Shown in pieces: positions 2,212 to 63,755 of a stretch of DNA of 64,000 bases. The notes below the pieces were generated by a model that made no database searches, was not told the origin of the DNA, and saw nothing but the letters and a program-made list of their open reading frames with translations. The DNA is from Escherichia phage DT571/2. The translations under genes were made by a program, and so were the position numbers. The stretch's first letter is position 1. Every line of letters starts with the position of its first letter. The stretch is from the sequence record NC_047749.1; one strand, written 5' to 3'.

Positions 2212-2384
2212 TTAAATCTGTGTATACACATCCCGATGATATATTTGTATGGGCGGATGGTAGTTGGTGTTATCGATGTGAGTTATGGGAAATGGACTAT
2301 AAATCCGATGACTATGGTGTCATATATGTTGATACGGTTGAGTATGATATGTTCTTAGAAAGGAACAAAAATGGAAATAAGTAA
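2202..2384 (+). CDS. Hypothetical protein (60 aa)
   Basis: Small ORF overlapping neighbours at both ends; no motifs. Confidence 0.3.
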   Translation: MSIVKSVYTHPDDIFVWADGSWCYRCELWEMDYKSDDYGVIYVDTVEYDMFLERNKNGNK

Positions 2385-2877
2385 TACTCCAATTATTTTT
2401 CTAGACATTGATGGGGTGCTCAACTCGAGCATCTCCCATCACCATGCACCTGATGATGAAAAGATTTTCTTTGGAAGTGACTGGGTTTTTAAACCGCTTC
2501 TCAAGGCTTTTCAGGACTTTATTCGTCCTTCTCCAATAATGATTGTTGGGGTATCTTCATGGTTCTCTGTCAGGAATGAGGTGGAGAACGTTCAGATTAT
2601 GACCAGATTAGATCTTATCGATCGTTTTCTTGGTATAACGGATTTTACTGGTGGTGGGCTATCTAGGGGTAATTCTGTTCTTCGCTTCGTCGAAAAGCAT
2701 AAGCTCAAACATTGGTGTGTGCTGGATGATGCTGGTGCTATGATGTATCAGTATCCAACAGTTATAGTCAACGGTAGAACTGGAATAAATCTTCAAGACT
2801 TAAGAGCTGTTAGCTATATGTTAGAATTTAGTCCAGATCTTGAAATGTGTAAAGCCCTACAACAATTTAAGGTGTAA
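2371..2877 (+). CDS. HAD-superfamily hydrolase-like protein
   Basis: N-terminal FLDIDGVLN matches HAD motif I (DxDGT/V). Confidence 0.5.
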   Translation: MEISNTPIIFLDIDGVLNSSISHHHAPDDEKIFFGSDWVFKPLLKAFQDFIRPSPIMIVGVSSWFSVRNEVENVQIMTRLDLIDRFLGITDFTGGGLSRGNSVLRFVEKHKLKHWCVLDDAGAMMYQYPTVIVNGRTGINLQDLRAVSYMLEFSPDLEMCKALQQFKV

Positions 2878-2879
2878 AT

Positions 2880-3308
2880 ATGTTCAATAATGTATTCTCT
2901 AAAGAAGCTAACCCAATATTGGTTAATTTTTGGCGTACTCTTCCAGCCAACCTGTACAATGAGGCTATTAATGCTCTGAAAATATGGTGTGAGAATAATG
3001 AAATCTCCTTTGCTTTTAAGGATGAGATTGAAGAAGCTCCCTGTATTGGTTTAATTGTGCAGGTAGAGGATGGCTTTGAAGAGATTATCGGATGGAAAGA
3101 GCTGGATGAAATGGGATTGGTTTTTGCATTAAACTATAAGCTATTTATGCCCAATAAACACCGTATTGTTGTTAATTATAAAACCAGTGAATCTCCGGGC
3201 TTTCAAGTTAATGAACATTACGGTTGGTCTTACTCACCGGAAGAAGTAAATGATGGTATCCAAAGACTTCGTCGTTTTGGTTATCAAATTCCGGGTTTAA
3301 CCGCCTAA
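2880..3308 (+). CDS. Hypothetical protein, paralog A (142 aa)
   Basis: Shares C(I/V)G...(W/D)(K/N)EL(D/S)(E/A)MGL(V/I)(F/V)ALN(Y/F)(K/S)LF(M/H)P...(I/V)PGL with the next ORF. Confidence 0.5.
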   Translation: MFNNVFSKEANPILVNFWRTLPANLYNEAINALKIWCENNEISFAFKDEIEEAPCIGLIVQVEDGFEEIIGWKELDEMGLVFALNYKLFMPNKHRIVVNYKTSESPGFQVNEHYGWSYSPEEVNDGIQRLRRFGYQIPGLTA

Positions 3309-3317
3309 GGGGACACA

Positions 3318-3710
3318 ATGGAACAAGTATATTGGCGTCAGATTGATCCTAGTTTGGTGAAGAGTGCGGAGAAGCTGCTACAACGTTGGTTGGGGGTAAG
3401 ACAAGCCTCCTTCACTTTTCCGGAGCAGCAAATAGACGATCCCTGTGTTGGTGTTTTCCTATCAGGCTACGCTAGGGAAGTGGAATTGGATTGGAATGAA
3501 TTGTCTGCTATGGGTTTAATTGTTGCACTAAATTTCTCTTTGTTCCATCCACGTGGGTTGGCAATATGTCGTGTGCCTGATGACGGTTGTTCGCCCCATC
3601 TTTTACAGGTGGAAGATGATATTTGGGAGTACCCTCCAGATATTCTCAAAGAAGCTAAAGAACAATTAAATCGTGTTGGGATTTATGTTCCAGGCCTGAA
3701 TGATGAATGA
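3318..3710 (+). CDS. Hypothetical protein, paralog B (130 aa)
   Basis: Tandem paralog of 2880-3308 (same motif block and same C-terminal PGL ending). Confidence 0.5.
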   Translation: MEQVYWRQIDPSLVKSAEKLLQRWLGVRQASFTFPEQQIDDPCVGVFLSGYAREVELDWNELSAMGLIVALNFSLFHPRGLAICRVPDDGCSPHLLQVEDDIWEYPPDILKEAKEQLNRVGIYVPGLNDE

Positions 3711-3801
3711 TTTTTATTAGCTGAACTCTGATTACCGAGTCATTTTGGCTCGGTTTTCTCTATGCTCAAAGACACTGGTAGCAGCCCCTGGAAAAATTTA
3801 C

Positions 3802-3830
3802 TTGCTTGATGCTCAAAATCTTGATATAAT
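3802..3830 (+). promoter_or_regulatory. T5-type sigma70 promoter firing into a ~0.6-kb non-coding stretch
   Basis: ttgctt 3802-3807, 17-bp spacer, tataat 3825-3830, leader atttatattgaattgagagac; no ORF of 60 aa or more on + until 4425. Confidence 0.55.
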
Positions 3831-4424
3831 ATTTATATTGAATTGAGAGACATTAGTAAAAATTGATTTTGCTAATTTTTCTTAGTGAAGCTGACAAGGG
3901 ATTTACGGCGAGAGGAATCGATGACCCGTAAATAGCTGCATAAGGTACGTTGCTAGAGCTTTACGAAAAAGTTTTTTCTTGTTTACAATCCGCGATACGG
4001 AACAGTTAGGCTGCCCCATTAAGGGTTGTTTTAACTATTACTAGTGTTTATATTGCATTAGTTAACCTTCAATTAAGTGATCTGTGTACCCTGAATTCGG
4101 AAAGGTAAATCCAAACCGTGCATATTTAGCTCGTTATATAGGCAGAGCTTTATATGGGGGTGCGAACGAAAAGAGCAGCGAATGGCGGCACGTACAGTAG
4201 TCACCTACCAATAGGATAGTGAGGACAAGTAGAATCGGCTTAGCGGCCAATGACCTAGGTTCTATTCTGTATAAGAGCGAAGAGAGCACAGCACTGAGAT
4301 ATGATAACTTATTCATATTGTTTGATGATAATTGATGTTTACGTAAATAGTAGTAATAGTTGTTCTATTCTTTCTGAATAGTCCTAAAGAAAAGATTTCG
4401 ATTAACCAACACAGGAGTATTATT

Positions 4425-7214
4425 GTGTTTTCTATCCTCCAAGGTCACGCCGGGTTTTCTCGTGATTTAGCAACAGGTATTTGGCGAGAAATCAAAGCGG
4501 GAGATTATACCTTTGCCAAGCGATTCTCGAAAGAGCATCCAGAAGGTAAACCAGCTTCTATGCCCTTCAAATTTGATGTAATAGAAGAGCACGACCCACA
4601 AAGCCTTGCAGAAATGTTACCACTTATGAGACGTTTAACGTCTGACCCTCATATCGTTGCGGTACGAGGTCGATGTCTTGCACCTAAAAATAATGTGCGA
4701 CGTAAGAAAGATAACTTTAATGTATCTAATCCTAGTAATATTATTGCTATGGACGTGGATGGTATCCTAGATACCGGTGGGTACGACAAATTTAATCTTG
4801 TTGGTATGGCCCGCCACATTATTAAGATGTTGAATAGTATTAGTGAGGATATGTTTCCTCTTGATGCAGGCTTTATAGCTCATGCATCATCTTCGGCTGG
4901 GCTAAAACCAGGTATCCGAATGCACTTAATACTAGAATCTAACGTCAAGGTAACTCAGGGTCAGCTAAAGTTCTTATTTACATCTATCAATGATAGTAGT
5001 AAGCAAAAATTTGGTTTTGATATTGCCGACCTAGCTTATTACTCATCTGTCCAGCTCCACTATTTTGCCGACCCCTTATTTAGCGATGGTATTGTTGATC
5101 CGTTTAAAGCGGAGAGTAAGCCACGTCTGGTGTATGTTAAAGGCTCAAAAGTAAACTTACCTAATAATCTAGTTGACTATGAAACAACTAGAGGAGAGTT
5201 TAAAGAGGAATTCTACTCTTTACTCGATCAAATTAAAGGCAAAAAGATTGCTTCTGATAAAGTAGAAGAAACCATCAGCGAGTTAGAAGAGGCTGATGAT
5301 GGAGTGTACTTGCGTATTATCCCCAAACTATACCATAGAGCATTAGAGGATGGTGTTGATTTTGAATGGCTAGAACGTGAGATTAAACCAGCTTTATCTG
5401 AATATATTGCAACTAAAGATAACAGTCGTAATATTCAAGATTACTTTAATAACGGTCGCAAGCAGGCTCTCAAAGCGTTTGTTAATAATTCTAAACGTGA
5501 GATTCCACCAAATCTGAAAGGTGTTCCACTTAAGAAATTAGAAGTGGATTCTCCACCAGAAGTTCCGTACCTGAAGATTAACATTGTGCCCCCAAAAGGT
5601 CATATAACATTTGTTAAGGCAAGTCTTGGTACGGGTAAAACTACGGCAGTAACTAAATGGCTGGACGCAGGTGTTCTTCCGGGCAACTTTTTAGCAGTTA
5701 CAAATACTAGAGCACTGGTATCTTCAAATGCCAAGAAATTTAGTGCAGGACAATACGATAAGTCTGTAGATATGCTCAACTTTAAACGTGGGGCTATTGA
5801 TCGTATGTCCACAACTATTCACTCTTTGCATAAGTTCAAAAGTTTTATTGGGCAAATAGACACCATTTTTATTGATGAATGTGACGCTGTAATGAATGAC
5901 CTATTATTCGCCCCTGTTGTTAAACAACGTCGCGAGTGTATTCAAGTTCTACGTGACATCCTCATGACAGCTAAGACTGTAATCTTATCCGATGGTGATA
6001 TTAGTGCGGAAACAATTGAAGCATATGGTTCTTTGATTGAGTTCGATAAACCAGTTGCATTTTACAATCACCACCGTAAAATGTTATCAAAGGCTCATGC
6101 TTATGAATTCCCTGATGAATCCAGTATTTGGGTTGCACTTCAGACTTCTCTAGAGATGGGTGAGAAATCTATTCTAGTATCTGATTGTGGTCCTGATGAG
6201 CTGAATGAGAAGGGTATGGCACTACGTCGTAATACTGGTGCATTAGTTAAAGAAATCCATTCAAACTCCACTTCAGATGTGGATATTCGACGTATTCTGG
6301 ATTATACAACTAATGAGCTAATTGATCAACAAATTGATTGCTTATTATGTAGTCCATCCGTAACGAGTGGAGTTGACTTTAACTATTTTGATAACGTATT
6401 TGTTATTACTAGAACCAGTAATCAGGCGCCAAACATGCGTTTTCAAGCAATCAGGCGCGACCGTGGTGCTCAGAATATCTATTATTTTATTGATAAATCC
6501 ACTAGTGGATTCTCTGCGGGTTCTGAACAATATAATATCGATGAAGGTTGGCTGGAGTTAGCACAGCAATTATATGCACGTCGCAGGGAGCTGGAGTCTA
6601 GGAACTATACTAGTACTTTACGTTATTACTTGCTTGATCAGGGTGCAACTATTGATATTTTCAGTGAAAGCTGGGGAACTATTGAAGGTGCTGGTAAAGA
6701 ATACACAGAAGAGCGAATCAAAGCTATTCTACATTCAACTCCTGATTATTGTGCTCCACGTCATGCGGATGCGTATGAGGCTAAACTACTTATTGTTCGC
6801 TATTATCATCTTGAGTCTATTAAAGATGTAACAGTTGAGCATGTTGAACAATATATCAAAGATAAGCCGAATGATCGAGCTGCATTCTTCCATAAGATGC
6901 ACGAGATGTTCTGGGAAGATATTAAGAAGTGTTCAAATGTGACCATTAAACCATTCATAGAAGCTCTGAAAGGTAAGAAGAAAGATTTCTTCCTTAAAAC
7001 AGGTCAGAGTGCTAACCCAAAATATGCTAGAATGTATCTTGGTATGATGGGTATTGGTAAAGATATGAACACGGAGAATATCGTAGACTGGTATAGAACC
7101 TACTGCAAAATCGAATGTATGCCAATCCCTCTCAAATTCATGACTGAAGAAGAGAAGGCTATGGCAGAAGAAGCAATGTCAGAACTAGGTGCTAGAAATG
7201 ACAGTGAAGAATAA
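4425..7214 (+). CDS. 929-aa Walker A/B ATPase-helicase, putative replication initiator/origin-binding-type protein
   Basis: GTG start with SD acaggag 7 nt upstream; Walker A SLGTGKTT and Walker B FIDECD in the C-terminal half; N-terminal half has DVDG (DxD) and GIRMH motifs compatible with a primase-polymerase-like domain. Confidence 0.6.
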   Translation: MFSILQGHAGFSRDLATGIWREIKAGDYTFAKRFSKEHPEGKPASMPFKFDVIEEHDPQSLAEMLPLMRRLTSDPHIVAVRGRCLAPKNNVRRKKDNFNVSNPSNIIAMDVDGILDTGGYDKFNLVGMARHIIKMLNSISEDMFPLDAGFIAHASSSAGLKPGIRMHLILESNVKVTQGQLKFLFTSINDSSKQKFGFDIADLAYYSSVQLHYFADPLFSDGIVDPFKAESKPRLVYVKGSKVNLPNNLVDYETTRGEFKEEFYSLLDQIKGKKIASDKVEETISELEEADDGVYLRIIPKLYHRALEDGVDFEWLEREIKPALSEYIATKDNSRNIQDYFNNGRKQALKAFVNNSKREIPPNLKGVPLKKLEVDSPPEVPYLKINIVPPKGHITFVKASLGTGKTTAVTKWLDAGVLPGNFLAVTNTRALVSSNAKKFSAGQYDKSVDMLNFKRGAIDRMSTTIHSLHKFKSFIGQIDTIFIDECDAVMNDLLFAPVVKQRRECIQVLRDILMTAKTVILSDGDISAETIEAYGSLIEFDKPVAFYNHHRKMLSKAHAYEFPDESSIWVALQTSLEMGEKSILVSDCGPDELNEKGMALRRNTGALVKEIHSNSTSDVDIRRILDYTTNELIDQQIDCLLCSPSVTSGVDFNYFDNVFVITRTSNQAPNMRFQAIRRDRGAQNIYYFIDKSTSGFSAGSEQYNIDEGWLELAQQLYARRRELESRNYTSTLRYYLLDQGATIDIFSESWGTIEGAGKEYTEERIKAILHSTPDYCAPRHADAYEAKLLIVRYYHLESIKDVTVEHVEQYIKDKPNDRAAFFHKMHEMFWEDIKKCSNVTIKPFIEALKGKKKDFFLKTGQSANPKYARMYLGMMGIGKDMNTENIVDWYRTYCKIECMPIPLKFMTEEEKAMAEEAMSELGARNDSEE

Positions 7215-25893: not shown

Positions 25894-28197
25894 TTATTTC
25901 GCTGCCTTCAGCGCGGCTATCTCTGCCTTCAAATCCTCGATTTGCTTATTGAGATACTGCACACAACCCATCAAATCCATAACGATCGGGTTTACATCCA
26001 CCGACGGCCTGTCGCGGGTCTTACCACCGATAATAGCGTTAGTCTCTGGGTCCACCTCCACATCGTACGTCTCTTCTCGATGTTTGATGTATTGAGGTGC
26101 AATCGCTTCAGCCTCCTCGGCAATTATGCCGAAGCGGACGCGCTCCTGCACATCGTCCTTATACACGTAGTTCACCATGCGCATTTGTTCAATACGTGCA
26201 ACCGCTTCTGTAACGTCTGCATTGACAATATCTTTCTTAAAGTCCCGCCCCGATGTGCCTTGCAAGGCAAGAACACCACCAGATGAAGGCCAGTTGATTG
26301 TAATGCCAGTGCCGTTTCCCTTCTCAAAATATTTATAGATCTGGTTACTATTGATATTAACCGAATCCCACATCGTGCGGAAATTACCAGCCGGGACTGA
26401 ATCTTTTGCGTTGTGTAGAACGAAAGACTTCACCGGACCGTCGGTAGTCGGGCGAATGGTTATATCACGGGCCCACACTACTCCGCCTGTTCCCGCTCCG
26501 GGGATCTCCACGACGGTATCTCGGTACGCGCCCGACGCGTCATATGATTGCAACTTAAAATTGCCCGAAGCGTCGTTAATCCCCATACGCCAGCGTACTT
26601 TATCGGCGGAATCCGCCCAACATACACCGTCAAAATCGGAGTTCACCGAGTTCACAACTATACTATTCGGTATAGTTAGTTTACCTGTTTCGTCAAAATC
26701 CAGATTCGCGCTTCTTTGTGTGGTACTGTTCGTTACGGAAATACGAGCAGAATAGTTACCGCCGATATCGGCACGGGCACAGAAACTAGCTTCAGCCTCA
26801 TTGGCGCCACTAATCTTGTACAATGAGAATATGTTACCACCTTGAGCAATTGTGCCGTCAGCTGGACGTGTCGCATCACCATTGATCACACTCCAAGACG
26901 TATTCGCCGCCACGAACCCGCCTGACGCTCGAATAACCCACACACCCATGAAGTTATTTGGACGCAACTCCGTTACGGTCCGACCATAGATCGCGCTGAC
27001 CCTCGAGGCGTCCAGGTTAATGATGCCGTAGGAGACCGCGCCGTTACTAACAGTTAGGTTGCTTGGCGTCCGATATTGCGAATCCGCGCCACCAGACCCA
27101 TGGAACGCGCCACTTTCACCGTTGATAATACTTGCGGACCCGCCGCCGTGTAATTCGACGCGGCCTGTGATGTTAGGTGCTCCTGATTCGTAGATATACC
27201 CATCGTTGCCACTTTGCCCGCCGTCCCCCCGGCAGAACAAGCCGAATATTGACCCAGGCTGAACACCATTACGGTCTGGCACTCGGAAGGTCGTTGTGCC
27301 GTCACCAGTAGAATACTTGCCGCGCTGATTTGGGTTAGCCAGCCAGGTAGCGTCACTAATTGGCGATAGCATTTGCGCATACGCCCAGAGTTCGGGCCAG
27401 TCAGCACGATTCAACAACTGACCATCACTCACCACCTCGTACGGCTGAATGTATGCGCGACTATCCCGCAGGTGAAAGTCACCTACCCCATAGTTCATAA
27501 CGCCATTCATGGTAGGTCCAACTGTACCAGTGTTAATCTTATTCTCTACCCAACGTTTGGTTACAGCATCGTAGTCCCCCACAGGGTCCCCAGCAAGAGG
27601 GGTGGACCCTTGTGGTCTTACAACGTCCCATAAAGCTTCTCTATTATTTACCCCGGTACCCCCTTGTTCAACCGGGAGTGCTAACCACTCATTCTCTGTA
27701 TCACTATAAACTCCCCAAGTACCATTATTTTGAATAGTTAATCTAGAATTCTTATCACCACTGTAGATTATGGTTTCTGTTTCGGACTCCTGACTAAATC
27801 TATCGAGTTCCAGTGCGGTTTTAGCCCCCTCTAGTGTAGAAGAACCAGTACCACCTTGAGCAATCGTAATAGCCTTAGTAAGCGCATTTAATTCTGTAAT
27901 ATCATTATTAGCACCTTTAGCAGCTTTACTATCTATGGTGATATTCATACTACCAAGAGCAGTATTGATATTCCCAATAGCCTCTACATTGTTCTGAATG
28001 GAACTATCAATACCAGTTAAACGAGTATTTAATTCTTCTTTATCTATAGTGTAGTTAGAGATTTGTAGGTATTTAGAAGTTAGTGCAACAGCACCAGCTT
28101 CTCCATCAACAGAGAAAACGCCTGCAACCGCAGCATCTCTGTTAACTACAACGTATGGCGCCATTGCGCCGGATTTAGGCATTAAATTACGTGACAT
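25894..28197 (-). CDS. Tail fibre protein with C-terminal intramolecular-chaperone (S74-like) domain; second L-shaped fibre protein (LtfB-like)
   Basis: 767 aa; C-terminus ...DVNPIVMDLMGCVQYLNKQIEDLKAEIAALKAAK resembles the auto-processing chaperone domain of tail fibres; shares an almost identical ~90-aa block with the 1039-aa fibre. Confidence 0.7.
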   Translation of the reverse strand: MSRNLMPKSGAMAPYVVVNRDAAVAGVFSVDGEAGAVALTSKYLQISNYTIDKEELNTRLTGIDSSIQNNVEAIGNINTALGSMNITIDSKAAKGANNDITELNALTKAITIAQGGTGSSTLEGAKTALELDRFSQESETETIIYSGDKNSRLTIQNNGTWGVYSDTENEWLALPVEQGGTGVNNREALWDVVRPQGSTPLAGDPVGDYDAVTKRWVENKINTGTVGPTMNGVMNYGVGDFHLRDSRAYIQPYEVVSDGQLLNRADWPELWAYAQMLSPISDATWLANPNQRGKYSTGDGTTTFRVPDRNGVQPGSIFGLFCRGDGGQSGNDGYIYESGAPNITGRVELHGGGSASIINGESGAFHGSGGADSQYRTPSNLTVSNGAVSYGIINLDASRVSAIYGRTVTELRPNNFMGVWVIRASGGFVAANTSWSVINGDATRPADGTIAQGGNIFSLYKISGANEAEASFCARADIGGNYSARISVTNSTTQRSANLDFDETGKLTIPNSIVVNSVNSDFDGVCWADSADKVRWRMGINDASGNFKLQSYDASGAYRDTVVEIPGAGTGGVVWARDITIRPTTDGPVKSFVLHNAKDSVPAGNFRTMWDSVNINSNQIYKYFEKGNGTGITINWPSSGGVLALQGTSGRDFKKDIVNADVTEAVARIEQMRMVNYVYKDDVQERVRFGIIAEEAEAIAPQYIKHREETYDVEVDPETNAIIGGKTRDRPSVDVNPIVMDLMGCVQYLNKQIEDLKAEIAALKAAK

Positions 28198-28215
28198 AGT
28201 ATTTCCTTAGTAAAT

Positions 28216-28231
28216 AGGGGCCGAAGCCCCT
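28216..28231 (-). promoter_or_regulatory. Intergenic GC hairpin with UUCG tetraloop between the two fibre genes
   Basis: On the - strand transcript: aggggc-uucg-gcccct; same hairpin sequence as the terminator at 20807. Confidence 0.4.
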
Positions 28232-28236
28232 TTGAA

Positions 28237-31200
28237 TTATTTAGCTTCGAGTTCAGTAATCTTGGCTTCCAGAGCCTCAACCTTATCCATCAAAGCGAGG
28301 ATAGCTTCGTGGTGGAGGGCTGCTGCAACACCGTAGGTGTCTACACCTTTAACGTCCGGGACTACCTCACCATCACGTAGATTCATGGAACCTGCATTGA
28401 ATATAGCATCCGGGAAGCGGTTCTCCACATCCTGAGCGATGAACCCGTAGTTCCTCTTAGAGTTATCCTGCTTGACACGCCACGATACACCCTTGATGGT
28501 ACGCATAGCGCCGAGAGGGTCCGGGATGCGTACAACATCTTCCTTGATGCGCTCGTCAGAAGTAGTGCTCCACCCACCCGGACATACCGCATTACCAGCC
28601 TGCATGAACTGGAAATACCTCGGAGTACTACCACTCACACTGGTCATTATGGTCATATCGCCATTACGTTCGGAGTATACTCGCCCGTACATGGCACCAC
28701 TTGGTGATACGAAGTCCAAAAATCCGGAGGTGTAACTACCACTACCTGTGATACGCACAATATTGCCTTTGGCAATCATATTGCCCGGTGTGACTAAGTC
28801 CCCGCTACTATTAAAGTCAAAGCTCCGAGTAACACCCAGAGTAGAGTTGTACACGGATATACGGGCAGCATACGTACCACCTATCGTGCCTACCATACGG
28901 AAATCTGCGGAACCTTCCAGCTGACCACCAACACGGTACTCACTAGTAACACGACCGCCAGTAACAGACGTTGTTGCAGGTGGCAGTGTGGCATCACCGT
29001 TAATCACAGACCACGACGTATTCGCAGCAACAAATCCGCCCGATGCACGAATCACCCAAACGCCTACGAATGAGTTAGGTCTTACCTCGGAAGCACGCCC
29101 ATAAGCCGCATTGACTCTAGATGCCCTGAATGTGTATGTGTTATATCTTGCGTTACTCCCCTCTGCGTTGCTAAGACTAATTGCAGAAGTTCCGTTATTA
29201 GAAGATGCAAATGCACCTGACGGAGCTCCTGCGAGATAACTATAAGAAGTAAAATCCCCTGAGATATCAGGGAGGCCGTTTTCAAGAATACCGCCATAAT
29301 TGCCGCCCGCATCACCACGCCCGAACAACCCCTTGATTGAACCTGTTTGAGTACCGTTACGGTCTGGCACGCGGAAAGTAGTAGAGCCATCACCTGTTGA
29401 ATACTGGTGTCTGTTCCAAGGGTCAGCAAGCCAATCAGCATCAGAAATAGGGGAAAGCATTTGAGCATAAGCCCACAACTCGGGCCAGTCAGCCCTATTA
29501 AGAAGTTGTCCATCAGAAACGACTTCATATGGTTGAATATACGCACGACTATCACGAAGGTGGAAATCACCTACACCATAGTTCATGACACCATTCATTG
29601 TTGGCCCTACTGTACCGGTGTTAATCTTATTCTCTACCCAACGCTTAGTAACAGCATCGTAGTCGCCAACAGGATCACCAGCCAGCGGCGTTGAACCAAC
29701 GGGTCGCACGTTAAGCCATGCGGCAGCACGGTCTGCCAAATCCGAAAGGTTATTAGCTTTTAATAAGTAATCAGTATCTGACTGAGTTTTAGCGTCTGCT
29801 AAAGCAGAATCAACCTCCATCTTAGTATACGTGGTAGCAATATCAGCCTTATCTGCTAAAGCAGAATCAACCTCCATCTTAGTATACGTGGTAGCAATAT
29901 CAGCCTTATCTGCTAAAGCAGAATCAACCTCCGTAGTACTATATAACTCGAGGGCTATACGGGCGTCTTCTTTAGTTGTTGCACCAGTACCGCCTTGATT
30001 AATACTAACAGTACCTTGTAGTGAGGTATCAATTTCAACGTTACCAGTTATATCATCTGGAGAGATACCATTAACTGTCACAACATAAGGAATCTGATCT
30101 TTAATAACGCCAGCATCTTCTTCGCCTTTAGTTGGTGCACGGAATGCCTGTCCTTGCATCATATCTGGTAGACGGAAGGTTGTAGAGCCATCACCCGTAG
30201 AGAAGTAAAGAGACGCACCGGCTTGCCATTCAGCTTCTGGTACAGAAGGAATTAAGCCAGCCTCAATAGCCTCCCAAGTATCTGGATAGTCTGCACGAAG
30301 AACTTCACGACCATCAGCAGGAAGAACACCAGGGTAGCCAACACCTGAATCTTTATCATAAGGGAACCAAGTAACTTCACCCAGCCATAAAGAGGGGTTA
30401 CCACCAGGAAGGGTGATCTGTACGTTACCCCCATCATCTGCACGAACGTTATTAACAGAAACTAACTTTTGCTCTGTTTCTACTAACTCTAATACTGGAG
30501 TCTCAGCAGTTCCAGCTACTTTGTACCACCCATATTTTGAGTTAGTTTGGTTCCAGACTAGAACCTTTTCGTCTAGCACACGGTTTACAACATCGGCATC
30601 AGCTTCTGCTTTAGTCTTATAAACTTTGATAAAACCAGAAATATCTACTTTATCAAGTTTACTATCAACAATCTGAGTTGCACGATCTGCCTCAGCTTTA
30701 GCACGATCTGCCTCAGTAGTAGCATCGATAGCTTTATCACCGGCTTCAGTAGCAGAACCAGCAGCATTAGTTTCAGAAATCTTAGCGTTTAGTTCTGATT
30801 GCCTTGCAGCAGCAGCATGTTCGCCAGCAGTGGTAGCAGCAGCATCAGCTCCATCTTTAGCTGTTTCAGCACCAGTCTTAGCAGCTTCTGCGGCTATTTG
30901 AGCTTGTTGCGCAGCTGTTTTAGCTTGTTCAGCTAGTAAACGACTTTGTTCAGCATTCTGCGCTGCCAATTCTGCAGAGTCTCTAAATCCCTCTGATTCT
31001 TGCGCAGAAGCTGCAGAATTATCTGCACTGCTTTGGGCTAAACCCGCCTGTCTTTCTGACTCAGTAGCAGAGGCAGCAGATTGAGTTGCTGAAGCTTCGG
31101 AAGCACCAGCATGAATACCCGCCTGAATCTCTGAATCTTTAGCGTTATTTTCAGAGTCCTTAGCTGCTATTTCAGAACCTCTAGCAGCAGCAGCGGATCC

Positions 31201-50607: not shown

Positions 50608-51110
50608 AGCTACTTAGAAAGATTACTATATCCTCTAGGGCAACATTGAGATTCCATCTAATGTGGTATAGCATATATGACCCTTATTGTGTTATAGATG
50701 TAGTTTTTATTATTATAGTTATTTAATAGCACATACTCTATTCTGGGTATTTTGGCTTTAATAGCTACATCTAGTGATATAGTGTAGAGGTGTAATGTGG
50801 TGTTGCTTCCCAAACGTGTGCTCTCTGGCATTTAAATACTGTTTTTGTACGTTGGTTTACATATTCACCGACAATTTGGATTCCACGATCAGCTAATCTA
50901 ATATTTATATCTTTTATTGTTAGCTTTTGTCGACCCGTAGAATCTCCTACACCTCATGTAGAGCATTAATTTTTTCTTGTTTACGTTCTATTATGGGAGA
51001 AGTTCTCCCGATCAATGAATATAGTATACATAATCGTATCGAATTTGTAAAGGGGATTTTAAAATACAGGAATGGGATACCAACTGAGTAGTATCCCATC
51101 CTATACTTAT

Positions 51111-55032: not shown

Positions 55033-55208
55033 TTAGTATAAAACAAAAAGACATCCAAGTAAACTAAATTTTTTATTTCTTGGATGGTATATTGGCATAA
55101 ACCACTATGTAAGAAAAGTAGAAGTCCTTCTAGGAGTCCATAAGCACGGTTGGTTATGCACAAATTGTAGAATACTTTAAATATCACATTTATAGGAGCA
55201 TGAAAGAT

Positions 55209-55337
55209 ATGTCAAACAAGAGAAAAAGTAGACGCGGAGAAGTGTATGAGAGTTGGGTTAATAGTTTTGGACTTGGGACTATCCTATTTTTTATTTTCGT
55301 AGGTTTTTGGTTGGCAGCTATGGCGGGGTGGATTTAA
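55209..55337 (+). CDS. Small membrane protein (42 aa)
   Basis: SD aggag; C-terminal TM helix LGTILFFIFVGFWLAAMAGWI; stop overlaps the next start. Confidence 0.4.
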   Translation: MSNKRKSRRGEVYESWVNSFGLGTILFFIFVGFWLAAMAGWI

Positions 55338-55444
55338 TGGAATGGGTAATTGTTACATTGCTAGGGATTGTGATTATTGGGCAATGTATTTTAGATAATC
55401 ACTTAGCTAGAATTGAAACTTTACTAACGGAGAAACGTAAATGA
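55337..55444 (+). CDS. Small membrane protein (35 aa)
   Basis: N-terminal TM helix WVIVTLLGIVIIG; TAATG and ATGA overlaps with neighbours. Confidence 0.4.
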   Translation: MEWVIVTLLGIVIIGQCILDNHLARIETLLTEKRK

Positions 55445-55635
55445 TGGAAGTAGTAGCTACACTAATAGTAATACAAGTCTGGGCAACTTTCATTGTTTCT
55501 TATAACGCGTATGTTCGCCTAAAAACTCTAGAGGCTCAAGTAAAACAGCAACAAGTTACTCTAGAAAAGCTAGTACTACTGCAACGTTGTGATAGTACCC
55601 GCATTTTGCAAATTGAGAGGGAATTAGATGTTTAG
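55441..55635 (+). CDS. Small membrane protein with coiled-coil tail (64 aa)
   Basis: TM helix VVATLIVIQVWATFIV followed by a helical charged segment. Confidence 0.45.
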   Translation: MMEVVATLIVIQVWATFIVSYNAYVRLKTLEAQVKQQQVTLEKLVLLQRCDSTRILQIERELDV

Positions 55636-59752: not shown

Positions 59753-59852
59753 GGTATAAACTCCAATTAATTTAATTTAAGGGATAAGATTAACATAATG
59801 TTAATCGTTATATTTCCCCAATAGTTCGGGGAAATATAAAGTTAACACTAAA

Positions 59853-60104
59853 CTATGCTACAGCTTCCAATTTTTCGTTACGTTGAACAACTTTTACAAC
59901 GTCGCCAGATTTAACGCGAACACTAAAAACGGTTTTTCCGTTGTTGCTACGTTCCGTTTCTGCATATACTGCATCAATTACATCGAACGGCATGAGCGCC
60001 GCGCCTTTGATGCGTTCGGCCTTTCCGGTTGCCTCGTCTGTTTTAGTAACGAAAGGGATGAAAACGGATTGACCAATTTTTGGCGCGGTGATAGCGTTTT
60101 TCAT
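59853..60104 (-). CDS. Hypothetical pre-early protein (83 aa)
   Basis: Shares the ggagtttatacc-ATG initiation region with the A2-like gene. Confidence 0.45.
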   Translation of the reverse strand: MKNAITAPKIGQSVFIPFVTKTDEATGKAERIKGAALMPFDVIDAVYAETERSNNGKTVFSVRVKSGDVVKVVQRNEKLEAVA

Positions 60105-60338
60105 GGTATAAACTCCAGTTATTTGATGGATTGTTCCGCATTACCTGCTAAAAAATAATAACAGGTAATAAGAAAAAATCCGCTCACCGTTAAAATCAAT
60201 TTAAGGAACTCCACACAGGCCGCTATATCCCGTTAGGGGGCGGGGCACATTATGGCAAGTACCGGCCGTCAAATTTTACCAAGTTATCGCTCTTGTTGAA
60301 TCGGGTACATTTTAAAGCCTATCGGCTAGGGCGTCAAA

Positions 60339-60509
60339 TTATTTTTCGTTTTCTTTTAAATTAGAATTCTCCCAACTGAATTGCATCTCGCAAAATATTT
60401 TCCCATCTTTATGATGGTAAGCGATCTCGCTCCCGTGGTTAGCACAGAAAGCGATCACTGCCTCAGCTTGTTCTACCGTGATATTGTTGGCCGTTTCTTT
60501 GATTTTCAT
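60339..60509 (-). CDS. Small hypothetical protein (56 aa, not in the ORF track)
   Basis: Strong SD aaggaga 7 nt upstream of ATG at 60509; translates to MKIKETANNITVEQAEAVIAF... Confidence 0.4.
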   Translation of the reverse strand: MKIKETANNITVEQAEAVIAFCANHGSEIAYHHKDGKIFCEMQFSWENSNLKENEK

Positions 60510-61132
60510 ATCGTCGTCTCCTTATAAGGTTAATAAGTTTGCCGCCGATGGGCTTTAAAATGCACCTGATTTTTAAAGAGCGCGGCGGTAAACTTTCCGC
60601 CGTGTAGTTCGTCATTGCCGCCCTACGAGATAAATAATAGGGAATACCCAAAAAAGGTGCAACCTTAATTTTGTAAAGAAATGTAAAGAAAGCAAATACC
60701 CGCACCGCGTCCGGCGATCGCCCAAGTTTAAAGGAAACAGGCGCGCGGATACCATAAAACCGAGCTGATTGGCAAGTAATTTTTTCATTTTTATTTGCCT
60801 TGCCCTACTTGACAAAACTTAAAAAGCTCGTGGTGACGATAAACGGGCTATCCCTTTATGATGGGATACCTGAAAAATTTACCGCGTTGTAGGACGTTTT
60901 AGGCCGCTTATCTTCGATTTAACAAATATTTAACAAAAGCAAAATTGAAAAATAGTTTGAGAAGGTATTGACTTTTTAAAATCAAGACTAAACGAGTTAT
61001 TTTAAAAAATTAATTAATTGACTTTTATTTGTTGTTGTGTAGTAGAAAGATAGCAGACTAATAATTGCTAGAATGATAATCATGCTGGTGATTGTAACAG
61101 ACTGAACTATTAGCAGACTACTGATCCCGGAA

Positions 61133-61176
61133 AATCTCATTAGCCAACTAACTATCTCATTAGCCAACTAACTATT
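61133..61176. repeat. Direct repeat 2 x ~21 bp (ctcattagccaactaactat)
   Basis: Two adjacent copies. Confidence 0.8.
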
Positions 61177-61185
61177 TCATAAGTT

Positions 61186-61365
61186 ATAATAACTATAAAA
61201 ATAATCACCGTTAAAATAATCACTATAAAAATAATCACCATTAAAATAATAACTATAGAAATAATCACCATTATAATAATCACCATTAAAATAATCACTA
61301 TAAAAATAATCACCATTAAAATAATCACTATAAAAATAATCACCATTATTATAATCACTATAAGA
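61186..61365. repeat. Tandem array, ~12 copies of a 15-bp AT-rich unit (ATAATCAC[C/T][A/G]TTAAA / ATAATCACTATAAAA)
   Basis: Contiguous 15-bp periodicity read directly from the sequence. Confidence 0.9.
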
Positions 61366-61401
61366 AACTATCGGCTTAAGTGAGAACCACTATCATTTAA
61401 G

Positions 61402-61510
61402 TTATCCACAACGTTATCCACAGCACAAAATGATTTGACACGATAGGCGGCGATATAAAGATTTATCCACAGACTTATCCACAGGTTATCCTACTGTATA
61501 TTTATCCAGG
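61402..61510. promoter_or_regulatory. DnaA-box cluster (4 perfect TTATCCACA plus 2 variants)
   Basis: TTATCCACA at 61402, 61414, 61463, 61475; variants ttatcctac 61486 and ttatccagg 61502. Confidence 0.8.
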
Positions 61511-61880
61511 GTAAAAAGATAGTGTTTACAACTGCAATCAATTTTGAGCGGCCTAAAACGCTTTCTAACGAGCTGATCGCTGTAGGGTAATATTAAAGTA
61601 AAGCCTTTACCCGTCGGCCTAGAGGCTTCGCCGTGTTTTGCTCTTTACTGCACCGCTGCGCGGTTAGCATAAAACTAGGTGTTAGGCAAGAAAAATAAAA
61701 AGTAAAGTAAACGTTGCCCCTAGAAAGAAAATAATTTTACCGGTAACATCGAAAGCGGGTAATAATTAACCTAATGTAAAGTTTTGTAAGGCCCGCCATA
61801 ATCAGCGGCCTTTTTTGTTATACTGCCCTTACACCGTTTAAGGACGGTTAAAAATTTCCCGAAAAATTTGGAGGCTTAAA

Positions 61881-62060
61881 ATGGTTATTTTTCGATCTAT
61901 TCTGGCGGGTATCTTGGGCGCTATTTTAACTCTATTTGCTACCGCTTACGGTATTCAAGATTCTTATTGCGGTTTAGTAAATACTAAACCTATGGTTATT
62001 ATTGGCGCGGGTATCGCTGTTTTTTCTTATTTGCTGGGCTGCATGAATAAAGGAGAATAA
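61881..62060 (+). CDS. Small membrane protein (59 aa)
   Basis: SD ggagg 6 nt upstream of ATG; two hydrophobic helices. Confidence 0.45.
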   Translation: MVIFRSILAGILGAILTLFATAYGIQDSYCGLVNTKPMVIIGAGIAVFSYLLGCMNKGE

Positions 62061-62062
62061 AA

Positions 62063-62275
62063 ATGATCCGCAACGTTTCTCTTGCTCGTTCCAAAGGTTT
62101 TAAGCTGGTGGATGTAAACACGTTCGAGCGTCCTGGTTGTAAAATCGAATATATAGCGCGGAATAAAAACGCTTTCCGCGTTACAGAAAAGAGATTCGAT
62201 AAACGCGGCAACGTGATAGCTGAAACGGTTAAATATTTTGCCACCTTTTACGCGGCCTTTCGTGGGGTATTATGA
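62063..62275 (+). CDS. Hypothetical protein (70 aa)
   Basis: SD aaggaga; part of a tightly packed small-gene operon. Confidence 0.45.
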   Translation: MIRNVSLARSKGFKLVDVNTFERPGCKIEYIARNKNAFRVTEKRFDKRGNVIAETVKYFATFYAAFRGVL

Positions 62276-62397
62276 AGAGCGTTGTTATTGTTATCCTTGC
62301 AATGGTTGGCGGTTTTACCACCACCTTGTTTAGAAATGATCCTCTTTTGCTAGGGATCTTTATGCTTTTATCTGGTTATCTGATCGGGAGGTTATAA
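62272..62397 (+). CDS. Small membrane protein (41 aa)
   Basis: ATGA overlap with the previous ORF; hydrophobic. Confidence 0.35.
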   Translation: MKSVVIVILAMVGGFTTTLFRNDPLLLGIFMLLSGYLIGRL

Positions 62398-62398
62398 A

Positions 62399-62743
62399 AT
62401 GGTGATTTATGAAGGTGATCGCCTTGTTGCTGATTGCCGTCCGGCATTGTTAGCAAACTACTTAAACCAGCTTTCGCCAGTATATAAAGGCGTTATAAAT
62501 ATTTATGAAGGCGGGGCGCATTATAAGATTAATGCGGTCGTTGCCCGTGAACTAGCGTTTCAATTTTTAACCTTTTCATCTTGCAATATTCAGGTCATGG
62601 GTGAGGCGTTAATTGCAGAAAATGAAGATGATTTTATTAATATCTTTCGCAAGATATGCACCGAGCGCCTGATAATGAAAGGGGCATATATTCAATCCAC
62701 TGCGGATAGTATTGAAACGGCTTTTCGAAAGGTGGCACAATGA
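62399..62743 (+). CDS. Hypothetical protein (114 aa)
   Basis: SD gggagg 7 nt upstream. Confidence 0.45.
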   Translation: MVIYEGDRLVADCRPALLANYLNQLSPVYKGVINIYEGGAHYKINAVVARELAFQFLTFSSCNIQVMGEALIAENEDDFINIFRKICTERLIMKGAYIQSTADSIETAFRKVAQ

Positions 62744-62848
62744 AGCTATATATTTTCGCGGGTAATGTTGAGGCTGCAAATGATTCCGCTGGTGGCGATA
62801 GCGTTCGCCATTATTGGCAAAATTATATTTACTAGGCGTAATGATCAC

Positions 62849-62903
62849 GGGGCACAACTATCAGGGAGTGCCCCTGATTCTCAAATGAGAATCATTCTCA
62901 TTT
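62849..62903. repeat. Hairpin (ggggcac/gtgcccc) followed by a perfect 21-bp palindrome aaatgagaatcattctcattt
   Basis: Palindrome at 62883-62903 is related to the 23-bp array units downstream. Confidence 0.8.
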
Positions 62904-63136
62904 GACCGCGCCCGCGATGGTTAGCACACTAATGATTAGGGTGTTACGTGTCGCCTTGTGTGATCGTTAGCGGGCTAACTAATTTTCAAGCCTCCTCCAG
63001 ATTTGCCCTTGTTTTAGTATCCCCATCAAAATAAAACGCGTTAGAAAGCGATTCAGGGCGTTTTAGGCCTATATTAGAATTATTCACTGCGTAGGAATAC
63101 TGTATATTTATACAGTAGAATAACCTGGGGATAAGT

Positions 63137-63208
63137 CGGTGGATAACGCTTCAAAATGGCTAGAATTTTGTCAAGGCAAATCGTGCTGTTGATAAGTCTG
63201 TGGATAAC
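63137..63208. promoter_or_regulatory. Second DnaA-box group, opposite orientation (tgtggataa)
   Basis: gtggataac 63139-63147 (8/9) and perfect tgtggataa 63200-63208. Confidence 0.65.
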
Positions 63209-63240
63209 TTAAATAACAGTGTTTCTCACTTCCGTTTTTA

Positions 63241-63505
63241 AATGCGAATCATTATCATTTGCATTCCACTTCTTAAATGAGAATCATTTCACTTCTTGAA
63301 TAGTTCTCATTCCCTTTCTTAAATGAGAATCATTTCACTTCTTGAATAGTTCTCATTTCACTTCTTGAATAGTTCTCATTCCACTTCTTAAATGAGAATC
63401 ATTCCACTTCTTAAATGAGAATCATTCCACCTCTTAAATGAGAATGATTATCATTCGCATTCCACTTCTTAAATGCGAATGATAATCATTCTCATTCGCA
63501 TTCCG
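63241..63505. repeat. Tandem array of ~9 copies of a 23-bp unit in two variants, flanked by palindromic aatg(c/a)gaat..attcgcatt elements
   Basis: Variants CCACTTCTTAAATGAGAATCATT and TCACTTCTTGAATAGTTCTCATT. Confidence 0.9.
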
Positions 63506-63509
63506 GCGA

Positions 63510-63755
63510 GCAGGGCAATTGCCCTGCGCTTATGTGCAAATCCGACAATTGCTCCAAGGGTTACGCGAGGGCATGTATGTGCAAATCCGACCCATTTTTT
63601 GGTAGTGTGCAAATCCGACCCCAAAAATTTATAAATTCGTGAGAGTGACAAATCTGTCTCCCAAAAACTCCAGCAATCACGAACTGCGTTCGAATCCTGT
63701 GGGGTATGTGCAAATCCGACACGGTTTTTCTAGGATTAAGATGTGCGAATCCGAT
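63510..63755. repeat. 18-bp palindrome gcagggcaattgccctgc plus 5 dispersed copies of the 14-mer TGTGCAAATCCGAC
   Basis: 14-mer at 63533, 63578, 63606, 63707 and variant tgtgcgaatccgat at 63742. Confidence 0.85.

Follow-up and report, generated by a model that had tools for sequence, protein, structure and literature searches.

The ORF-poor stretch immediately upstream of the D2 helicase gene in this phage genome very probably specifies a member of an undescribed family of large structured RNAs, which is transcribed rightward from the promoter at positions 3802–3830, starts at about position 3837 and runs unterminated into D2 (positions are those of the window, i.e., the whole 64-kb stretch of DNA that was analysed, unless another locus is named). 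The leader is ~590 nt long and, in the modelled fold, has a core of ~420 nt (3973–4394) with a multibranched interior and the invariant loops AUACGGAACAGUUAGGCUGCCCCAU and CUUAGCGG. Compensatory and wobble pairs occur in it above the level of controls and on one strand, the generic mark of a conserved structured RNA. The first-pass annotation of this DNA had proposed either a structured sRNA or a long regulated 5′-UTR of the downstream 929-amino-acid (aa) gene, and that proposal is supported by the conserved plus strand structure with its compensatory substitutions that is described below. In deposited records the region is unannotated or carries just a promoter, a terminator or small hypothetical ORFs, and our searches of the literature and databases found no description of the leader RNA and no origin mapped at the locus.

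The locus, its promoter and its coding capacity

Window positions 3700–4450 match 522 phage records at 80–99% identity, nearly all of them T5-like (Demerecviridae) and with Salmonella phage Kenya-K44 as the top match, and by this similarity the window is from a T5-like phage. The spacer is flanked on its left by a T5.107 homologue (3318–3710) and on its right by the 929-aa D2 gene (plus strand, 4425–7214), which is annotated in the records as “replication origin binding protein” or, in some of them, as “DNA primase C”. The product of this gene is D2, a bipolar SF2 helicase that Wong et al. have characterised (PMC3632103); the primer for the cloned D2 ORF begins GTGTTTTCTATCCTCC, the same as the D2 start in the window, in agreement with the GTG at 4425 that had been taken in the first-pass annotation as the downstream start. 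That D2 is a replication initiator is a proposal of the same authors, and multiple origins are reported for T5 (PMC3632103).

The match of D2 to UL9-type proteins, seen with the Pfam Herpes_ori_bp family and in a PDB search, is confined to its helicase region (residues 389–533). No Pfam domain was found in the N-terminal domain, for which a homologue search returned two fragments and a single-sequence AlphaFold model had a pLDDT of 39; residues 272–364 have a weak PDB match to RNase H3 (4py5, E = 0.005). Residues 1–390 (window 4425–5594) also contain an IIAMDVDG / HASS / HYFAD pattern, which we take to recall the motifs of archaeo-eukaryotic primases. The operon 5′ of the spacer (2371–3710) has genes for a “Swiss Army Knife RNA repair”-type HAD domain (2371–2877) and for two paralogous DUF7415 proteins (2880–3308 and 3318–3710).

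That upstream operon ends at an intrinsic terminator with a 9-bp stem and a T run (plus strand, 3734–3754), which is annotated in T5 and BF23 and isolates the transcription unit of the RNA; an equivalent terminator lies ahead of the RNA unit in the Klebsiella phage locus L068. Next comes the sigma-70 early promoter (plus strand, 3792–3830), made up of an A-rich tract 5′ of the −35 element, TTGCTT at 3802–3807, a 17-nt spacer and TATAAT at 3825–3830. A consensus promoter scan missed this site because its −35 element matches at just three of six positions; the T5 record AY543070 annotates the same site, in accord with the strong promoter that the first-pass annotation had placed there. The transcription start near 3837 would be the one predicted from the promoter sequence.

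The claim that the plus strand of 3831–4424 contains no ORF of 60 aa or more also held, the plus strand ORFs inside it being 38, 38 and 26 aa long; there is in addition one 60-aa ORF on the minus strand (4134–4316), which had gone unmentioned. The 714-nt stretch 3711–4424, with no ORF of at least 80 aa in six frames, is the third longest such stretch in the window. Stop codons in the Epseptimavirus lineage disrupt the 60-aa ORF and both 38-aa ORFs, and the type B sequence (below) is unrelated there. Four of the five small ORFs checked have stop codons or a lost start codon in sister lineages; a 43-aa minus strand ORF (4073–4204) is open throughout type A (below), but its changes are non-synonymous. 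Other long stretches without ORFs of at least 80–100 aa lie at 59753–63676, 780–1371, 50608–51110 and 55033–55555, the largest cluster of them near the right end of the window, where no Rfam family or tRNA was found.

The first-pass annotation had seen no tRNA signature and had suggested tRNA and covariance-model scans as a check, and these scans gave no tRNA and no Rfam family: ARAGORN finds no tRNA or tmRNA in the whole window, the Rfam matches in 3831–4424 are at chance level (E ≥ 0.5) and on the minus strand, and with Rfam 15 nothing reached the gathering threshold in the window and nothing was found in 10 related loci at permissive E-values. The models without a match include those of ROOL, GOLLD, OLE, RNase P, 6S RNA, group I and II introns and riboswitches. 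A likeness to conserved regions of RNase P (GGCUUA and UAGGCUGC), noticed by eye, was discarded, as the Rfam models give it no support.

A conserved fold on the plus strand

An alignment of eight phages runs from the promoter through an invariant start (ATTGAATTGAGAGAC...) and a 97-nt optional segment to the invariant block TTTTTCTTGTTTACAATCCGCGATACGGAACAGTTAGGCTGCCCCATTAAGGGTTG, 3′ of which ~300 nt exist in two very different versions, type A (the window, T5, BF23 and Epseptimavirus) and type B (Gostya9, chee24 and others). Both versions contain GGCTTAGCGGCC, and the invariant 3′ block of the leader contains CTATTCTTTCTGAATAG and AAAGAAAA. Single-sequence folds of type A and type B leaders give one architecture despite their differing sequences. 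RNAalifold, run on 20 distinct type A leaders, yields a predicted fold of 17 helices and 145 pairs, with standard pairs in 99.9% of the cells as against 36–52% in slid controls. Counted on the same alignments from which the structures were predicted, seven type A pairs are changed on both sides (0–1 in slid controls) and ~20 on one side, always via G·U, and an independent set of 12 type B leaders has five two-sided changes, 13 one-sided changes and three broken pairs (0–1 in slid controls); independent events among these are few, since within each type a single branch or a handful of branches accounts for most of the compensatory changes.

The pairing is preserved on one strand: 24 of the 28 variable pairs stay standard in every sequence when read on the plus strand, versus seven of 28 on the complement, and such plus strand-only pairing through G·U argues for an RNA and not a DNA cruciform. 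Minimum free energy z-scores relative to dinucleotide shuffles range from −1.5 to −4.2 across all lineages, and in the Aeromonas phage the value is −4.2 on the plus strand versus −1.8 on the minus strand.

Helix P13, which surrounds the GGCU[UAGC]GGCC hairpin P14, re-forms with unrelated sequences in nine lineages that include Klebsiella, Pectobacterium, Providencia, Proteus and Aeromonas phages (UAGAAUC/GGUUCUA, CAAAUCU/GGAUUUG, GUGCGGG/CCUGCAC, AUACGGG/CUCGUAU, CCCGAAA/UUUCGGG and others). In a hand-registered P13/P14 alignment of these nine lineages, which was fitted to the helix by picking loop lengths that maximise pairing, 87.9% is paired (33–49% when slid) and the covariation score is 0.77 (0.06–0.21 when slid). 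A duplex-versus-shuffle test of P13 gave a combined Fisher p of about 5 × 10⁻⁷.

The predicted structure begins with the 5′ hairpin P0 (plus strand, 3844–3884), in which AUUAGUAAAA (3852–3861) pairs with UUUUGCUAAU (3867–3876) and the helix is extended by GAGAGA/UUUUCUU; equivalent 5′ hairpins of other sequences were recognised by eye in the leader folds of Klebsiella, Pectobacterium, Providencia and Proteus phages. It is followed by the optional 97-nt accessory stem-loop (plus strand, 3884–3980; closing helix 3885–3892 / 3957–3964), which is flanked by the 8-nt direct repeat TTTTTCTT (3876–3883 and 3973–3980). T5 and BF23 are without this insert, and 49 records carry it, in one copy each and always at this locus; given this single copy at one locus, a multi-copy mobile mini-element was rejected in spite of the flanking repeat. 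The insert folds as its own hairpin, and its closing pair is G-C in the window, G·U in phiR2-01 and A-U in bastian. The inverted repeat that the first-pass annotation had offered as its example of structure is present (3901–3908 / 3926–3933), but it belongs to this optional insert and not to the conserved core.

Where the insert is missing, there is one UUUUUCUU with two alternative partners, the 5′ GAGAGA (a longer P0) and the 3′ AAAGAAAA (P1), and the duplicated UUUUUCUU of the window allows the P0 extension and P1 to form simultaneously (3844–3850, 3876–3883, 3973–3980 and 4387–4394). In Salmonella phage oselot (locus L007, 1536–1566) the P0 3′ arm TTTTGCTAA is tandemly triplicated, and the record calls it a repeat_region; since GCUAA in the TTTTGCTAA repeats is complementary to UUAGC of the P14 loop, a loop-to-linker contact is possible.

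The core domain (plus strand, 3973–4394), as predicted by RNAalifold from the 20 type A and 12 type B leaders, is closed by P1 (3973–3980 / 4387–4394). All of its elements are on the plus strand. In the alignment the P2 hairpin (3985–4029) carries the block AUACGGAACAGUUAGGCUGCCCCAU, which is invariant among the aligned T5-like leaders including type B and nearly identical in loci L068 and L069; in locus L033 the P2 pair GG/CC is replaced by AG/CU. P3 and P4 together make a long stem of ~35 bp, whose 5′ arm (4032–4072) and 3′ arm (4322–4362) are found both by RNAalifold and as the inverted repeats I1 and I2. In type B the arms differ in sequence and still pair, and one pair of this stem is A-U in the window, G·U in T5 and G-C in Gostya9. 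Between the arms are predicted the 5′ strands of P5–P7 and the P8 hairpin (4076–4161, with P8 at 4115–4135 / 4141–4161), where P5 has two compensatory pairs; then, in the segment 4192–4272, P11, P12, the helix P13 that re-forms across lineages (4228–4236 / 4258–4266) and P14 (4237–4248); and then the 3′ strands of P6 and P5 and the P15 hairpin (4275–4319, with P15 at 4298–4304 / 4313–4319).

The invariant CUUAGCGG occupies 4239–4246 within P14, and the P13/P14 motif occurs once in the 64-kb window. P15 has AU to GC covariation, and at its position type B, Klebsiella and Pectobacterium leaders have a hairpin with the loop RGUUGCCA. The P16 hairpin (4365–4381, CUAUUC-UUUCU-GAAUAG) is invariant in type A, with some loops one base shorter, and at its position hairpins of other sequence were seen by eye in loci L033, L068 and L037. 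Beyond the core, a linker leads to the Shine-Dalgarno sequence AGGAG (4413–4417) and the D2 GTG start at 4425 (4395–4427, plus strand). A search for intrinsic terminators ahead of D2 gave none in the window, in Stubb or in L068; with no terminator before D2 and no second promoter in T5-like phages, the RNA is physically the 5′ leader of D2. As a unit it thus has a promoter but no terminator of its own, and a discrete RNA might still arise from it by processing.

Distribution among phages and inheritance with D2

Matches to the spacer itself occur in 440 phage records, and the loci of other lineages were fetched through D2 homology. Klebsiella, Pectobacterium (My1), Providencia (PR1) and Proteus (Stubb) phages, whose D2 proteins are 55–74% identical, have the same layout, and in every locus where D2 identity is 55% or more a consensus sigma-70 promoter lies 470–800 nt 5′ of D2 and is followed by ORF-free sequence. 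Some T5-like phages have a different promoter sequence at the identical position; judged by sequence, the promoter is conserved or replaced by another in every lineage. Conservation is higher in the leader than in the genes on either side: T5 and oselot are 92.8% identical in the leader, 71.5% in the upstream gene and 86% in D2. Proteus phage Stubb (locus L035) has two perfect (12/12) sigma-70 promoters on the same strand, at 1705–1733 and 2435–2464, with no terminator between them; the first is at the start of the structured RNA and the second is 66 nt 5′ of D2, so that the RNA is kept even where transcription of D2 needs none of it.

The Vibrio and Aeromonas members (D2 25–34% identical) have D2-upstream gaps of 0.6–1.6 kb that are unannotated or dubiously annotated. 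The 1.6-kb unannotated gap of Aeromonas phage TS3 (locus L079, 719–2308) contains two CUUAGCGG hairpins (1198 and 1442) and three CGGAACC motifs and, from its sequence, could represent the RNA in a duplicated or expanded form; this phage probably belongs in the family. The gap of Vibrio phage PG07 has no CUUAGCGG motif, a z-score of about −3.6 on both strands and two 64-nt direct repeats that are 95% identical and have a small hairpin in each (locus L078, 1928–1991 and 2041–2104), and it may be a different, origin-like element. A covariance model of the T5-like P13/P14 (R1) proved too narrow and was dropped. A second model (R2, nine lineages) recovers just its training lineages, with nothing further in the window, and did not find the P13/P14 motif in the D2-upstream regions of four Vibrio phage loci, so the RNA family as defined here covers the lineages with enterobacterial hosts. 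A two-motif pattern scan of public genomes and metagenomes gave T5-like or Klebsiella phage (Demerecviridae-like) contigs and otherwise chance-level matches without similarity.

The RNA element is always immediately 5′ of D2. When T5 is compared with the type B phage chee24, identity is mostly 87–99% in the upstream flank, 46–53% in the RNA interior and mostly 79–90% (one comparison window 65%) over the first ~1670 nt of D2, beyond which it is 94–98%; this profile indicates that the RNA core and the N-terminal half of D2 were exchanged as one block. The lambda ori and the N-terminal part of the O protein vary together, and the T5-like locus is like that ori/O module in that a cis element and the N-terminal part of a (here putative) initiator vary as one exchangeable block; it differs in that the lambda ori is built of DNA iterons that lie within O, whereas the T5-like locus is without iterons and its constraint is on RNA pairing. 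The T5 locus (L042, ~5220–5820) also has ~600 bp directly 3′ of D2 that are missing in chee24 and in the compared Epseptimavirus-type locus, and from the sequence this looks like a lineage-specific insertion.

Possible roles of the leader RNA

Among the roles weighed here, we tentatively favour one in which the leader is the RNA component of D2-dependent replication initiation, as a pre-primer, an R-loop former or a loading ligand. Strong transcription of this mid-genome locus would yield a folded RNA and thereby set the site apart as an origin; the transcript might act as a pre-primer or R-loop former, as do ColE1 RNA II or the T4 oriF/oriG origins, or it might alternatively be a ligand for recognition and loading by the N-terminal half of D2. 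On this view, cores of types A and B would be matched RNA–D2 specificity alleles, and the long stem could also be an RNase III-type processing stalk. In this proposal we infer the ends of the transcript, its processing, its binding by D2 and its role in replication. The locus lies at 48.5% of the T5 genome, and electron microscopy by Bourguignon et al. in 1976 reportedly placed an early origin near the genome centre. The promoter is retained at the start of the RNA even in Stubb, where D2 has its own, and a terminator precedes the unit, both of which favour a role in initiation. Primase annotations in T5-like phages and the multiple origins reported for T5 speak against it, and the co-inheritance with D2 could be plain linkage.

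The region has no iterons or tandem repeats, just two-copy short repeats of 9–18 nt, and no obvious DNA-unwinding element, and an iteron-type origin with at least three direct repeats and an AT-rich unwinding element was rejected. No conserved antisense promoter of the RNA I type was found; the promoter-like sites on the minus strand in the window, Stubb and L068 are weak, and their positions are not conserved. There is also no GC-skew switch at the locus. The switch is at ~26 kb and follows gene orientation; phage GC skew mostly tracks the direction of transcription. A GC-rich block at 26001–30000 (0.48–0.50 versus 0.39 elsewhere) coincides with the change of skew sign and presumably marks the switch from rightward early to leftward late genes. 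We consider rather unlikely, as it stands, a more specific version in which the folded transcript, and not DNA iterons, is recognised by the N-terminal half of D2 to start T5 replication, giving an RNA-defined origin whose type A and type B cores are replication-specificity alleles that bar cross-use of the initiator by co-infecting phages.

It is possible, if doubtful, that the RNA is instead a cis-regulatory 5′ leader that sets the amount of D2, with D2 or another factor binding the conserved loops (autogenous control) and/or RNase III cutting the long stem, thereby altering mRNA stability or translation. Such a role would suit an RNA that is physically the D2 5′-UTR, with no terminator between them and no second promoter in T5-like phages, and that has a core inherited with the N-terminal half of D2; the D2 start is the weak codon GTG, and the ~35-bp stem has the length needed in an RNase III substrate. 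However, in none of the lineages does a conserved helix cover the Shine-Dalgarno sequence or the start codon (p 0.1–0.9 versus shuffles), the core is a closed domain that already ends at 4394, up to 30 nt 5′ of the Shine-Dalgarno sequence, the perfect promoter between RNA and D2 in Stubb bypasses the leader, and at ~420–700 nt with invariant loops the RNA is far above known translational operators in size. A riboswitch or translational operator was rejected because no expression platform was found (no terminator and no conserved duplex with the initiation region).

A stand-alone, trans-acting stable RNA is unlikely. The long stem would in this case be a processing stalk, freeing either the ~270-nt interior or the core in its entirety to act elsewhere, for example as a scaffold, decoy, ribozyme or anti-defence RNA, as other large ornate phage-associated RNAs may do. 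Few natural RNAs longer than 400 nt have complex conserved folds, and those that do have often proved to be ribozymes, RNP scaffolds or self-assembling particles. The size, multibranch complexity, invariant loops and closing long stem of the leader fit a large ornate RNA, and in favour of a trans-acting RNA are also its very strong promoter, kept in every lineage, the separate D2 promoter in Stubb and the Aeromonas phage with its 1.6 kb of structured RNA and two CUUAGCGG hairpins. Yet the RNA always adjoins D2 and is inherited with it, it is without a terminator of its own, and the pattern scan finds its motif solely in Demerecviridae-like contigs.

We think it very unlikely that the region is a purely DNA-level element, that is, an origin or protein-binding region with hairpins in the DNA and incidental transcription. 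The annotation of the downstream gene as an origin-binding protein and the two 64-nt direct repeats of PG07 at the same position would agree with this, as would a single 9-mer resembling UL9 box I, GTGCGAACG, which is at 4160–4168 and unique in the window. The core of HSV UL9 Box I is CGTTCGCAC, and GTGCGAACG is its reverse complement; it is kept in all type A leaders, and by our own arithmetic the chance of its occurrence in 600 bp is ~0.005. It is missing, however, from type B and the other lineages and is therefore probably a coincidence. An origin of the HSV UL9 kind, with paired CGTTCGCAC boxes around an AT-rich spacer, was rejected, as there is one copy, in type A only, and D2 matches UL9 in the helicase region only. 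Moreover, the G·U route keeps pairing on the plus strand alone (24/28 versus 7/28 on the complement), there are no iterons, and every lineage keeps a promoter at the 5′ edge. Some automated annotations place small ORFs here, but a spacer without function, the remains of a decayed gene or overlooked genes for small proteins are hardly credible for a leader that is conserved above its flanking genes, has substitutions that are compensatory and not codon-periodic, has four of five small ORFs broken in sister lineages and matches no tRNA or Rfam family.

Several known systems bear comparison with the leader. ColE1 RNA II is like the predicted leader RNA in being a ~0.5-kb transcript of a replication control region with a strong promoter and a conserved multi-stem fold, in its case one needed in the start of replication; the leader has no sequence or Rfam relation to it, is without a conserved RNA I-type promoter and, unlike it, enters the initiator-helicase gene of a lytic phage. 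The T4 oriF/oriG R-loop origins and the T7 primary origin are similar in that a promoter is positioned to supply a transcript from which replication could start, the phage being virulent and using host RNA polymerase, but these transcription-dependent origins need a promoter and a short unwinding element, whereas the T5-like leader has ~420 nt of selected RNA structure and no evident unwinding element. The R1 repA/CopT leader, the IncI-alpha repZ pseudoknot and the T4 gene 32 and 43 operators are likewise structured leaders before replication genes, where autogenous control is possible; they are much smaller and work by occlusion of the ribosome binding site or by antisense RNA, and no such pairing is conserved in the T5-like leader.

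Large RNAs such as ROOL, GOLLD and OLE, whose functions are unknown or only recently approached, share with the leader a length of more than 400 nt, many helices and invariant loops, but there is no Rfam match, the architecture is different and the T5-like RNA is fixed upstream of D2. The stem of ~35 bp, which is long, imperfect and AU-rich and pairs the sequences on either side of a structured domain, resembles the RNase III stalks of rRNA operons and the sites in T7 early mRNA; the T7 sites are hairpins of ~60 nt, whereas the putative T5-like stalk encloses a core of ~270 nt.

We regard the leader RNA as representing a new family of large structured RNAs that occurs in a classic model phage and in a familiar setting, that of a replication-gene leader or an origin-proximal transcript. 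It is unannotated in several hundred deposited genomes, including those of therapeutic-candidate Salmonella, E. coli and Klebsiella phages. To our knowledge, where and how T5 replication starts has never been defined molecularly, and the role of D2 in it is just a proposal; an RNA of ~0.5 kb that lies before D2 and is inherited with its N-terminal half would be a mutable handle on the start of T5 replication, for which the two core types and the optional hairpin are natural swap variants.
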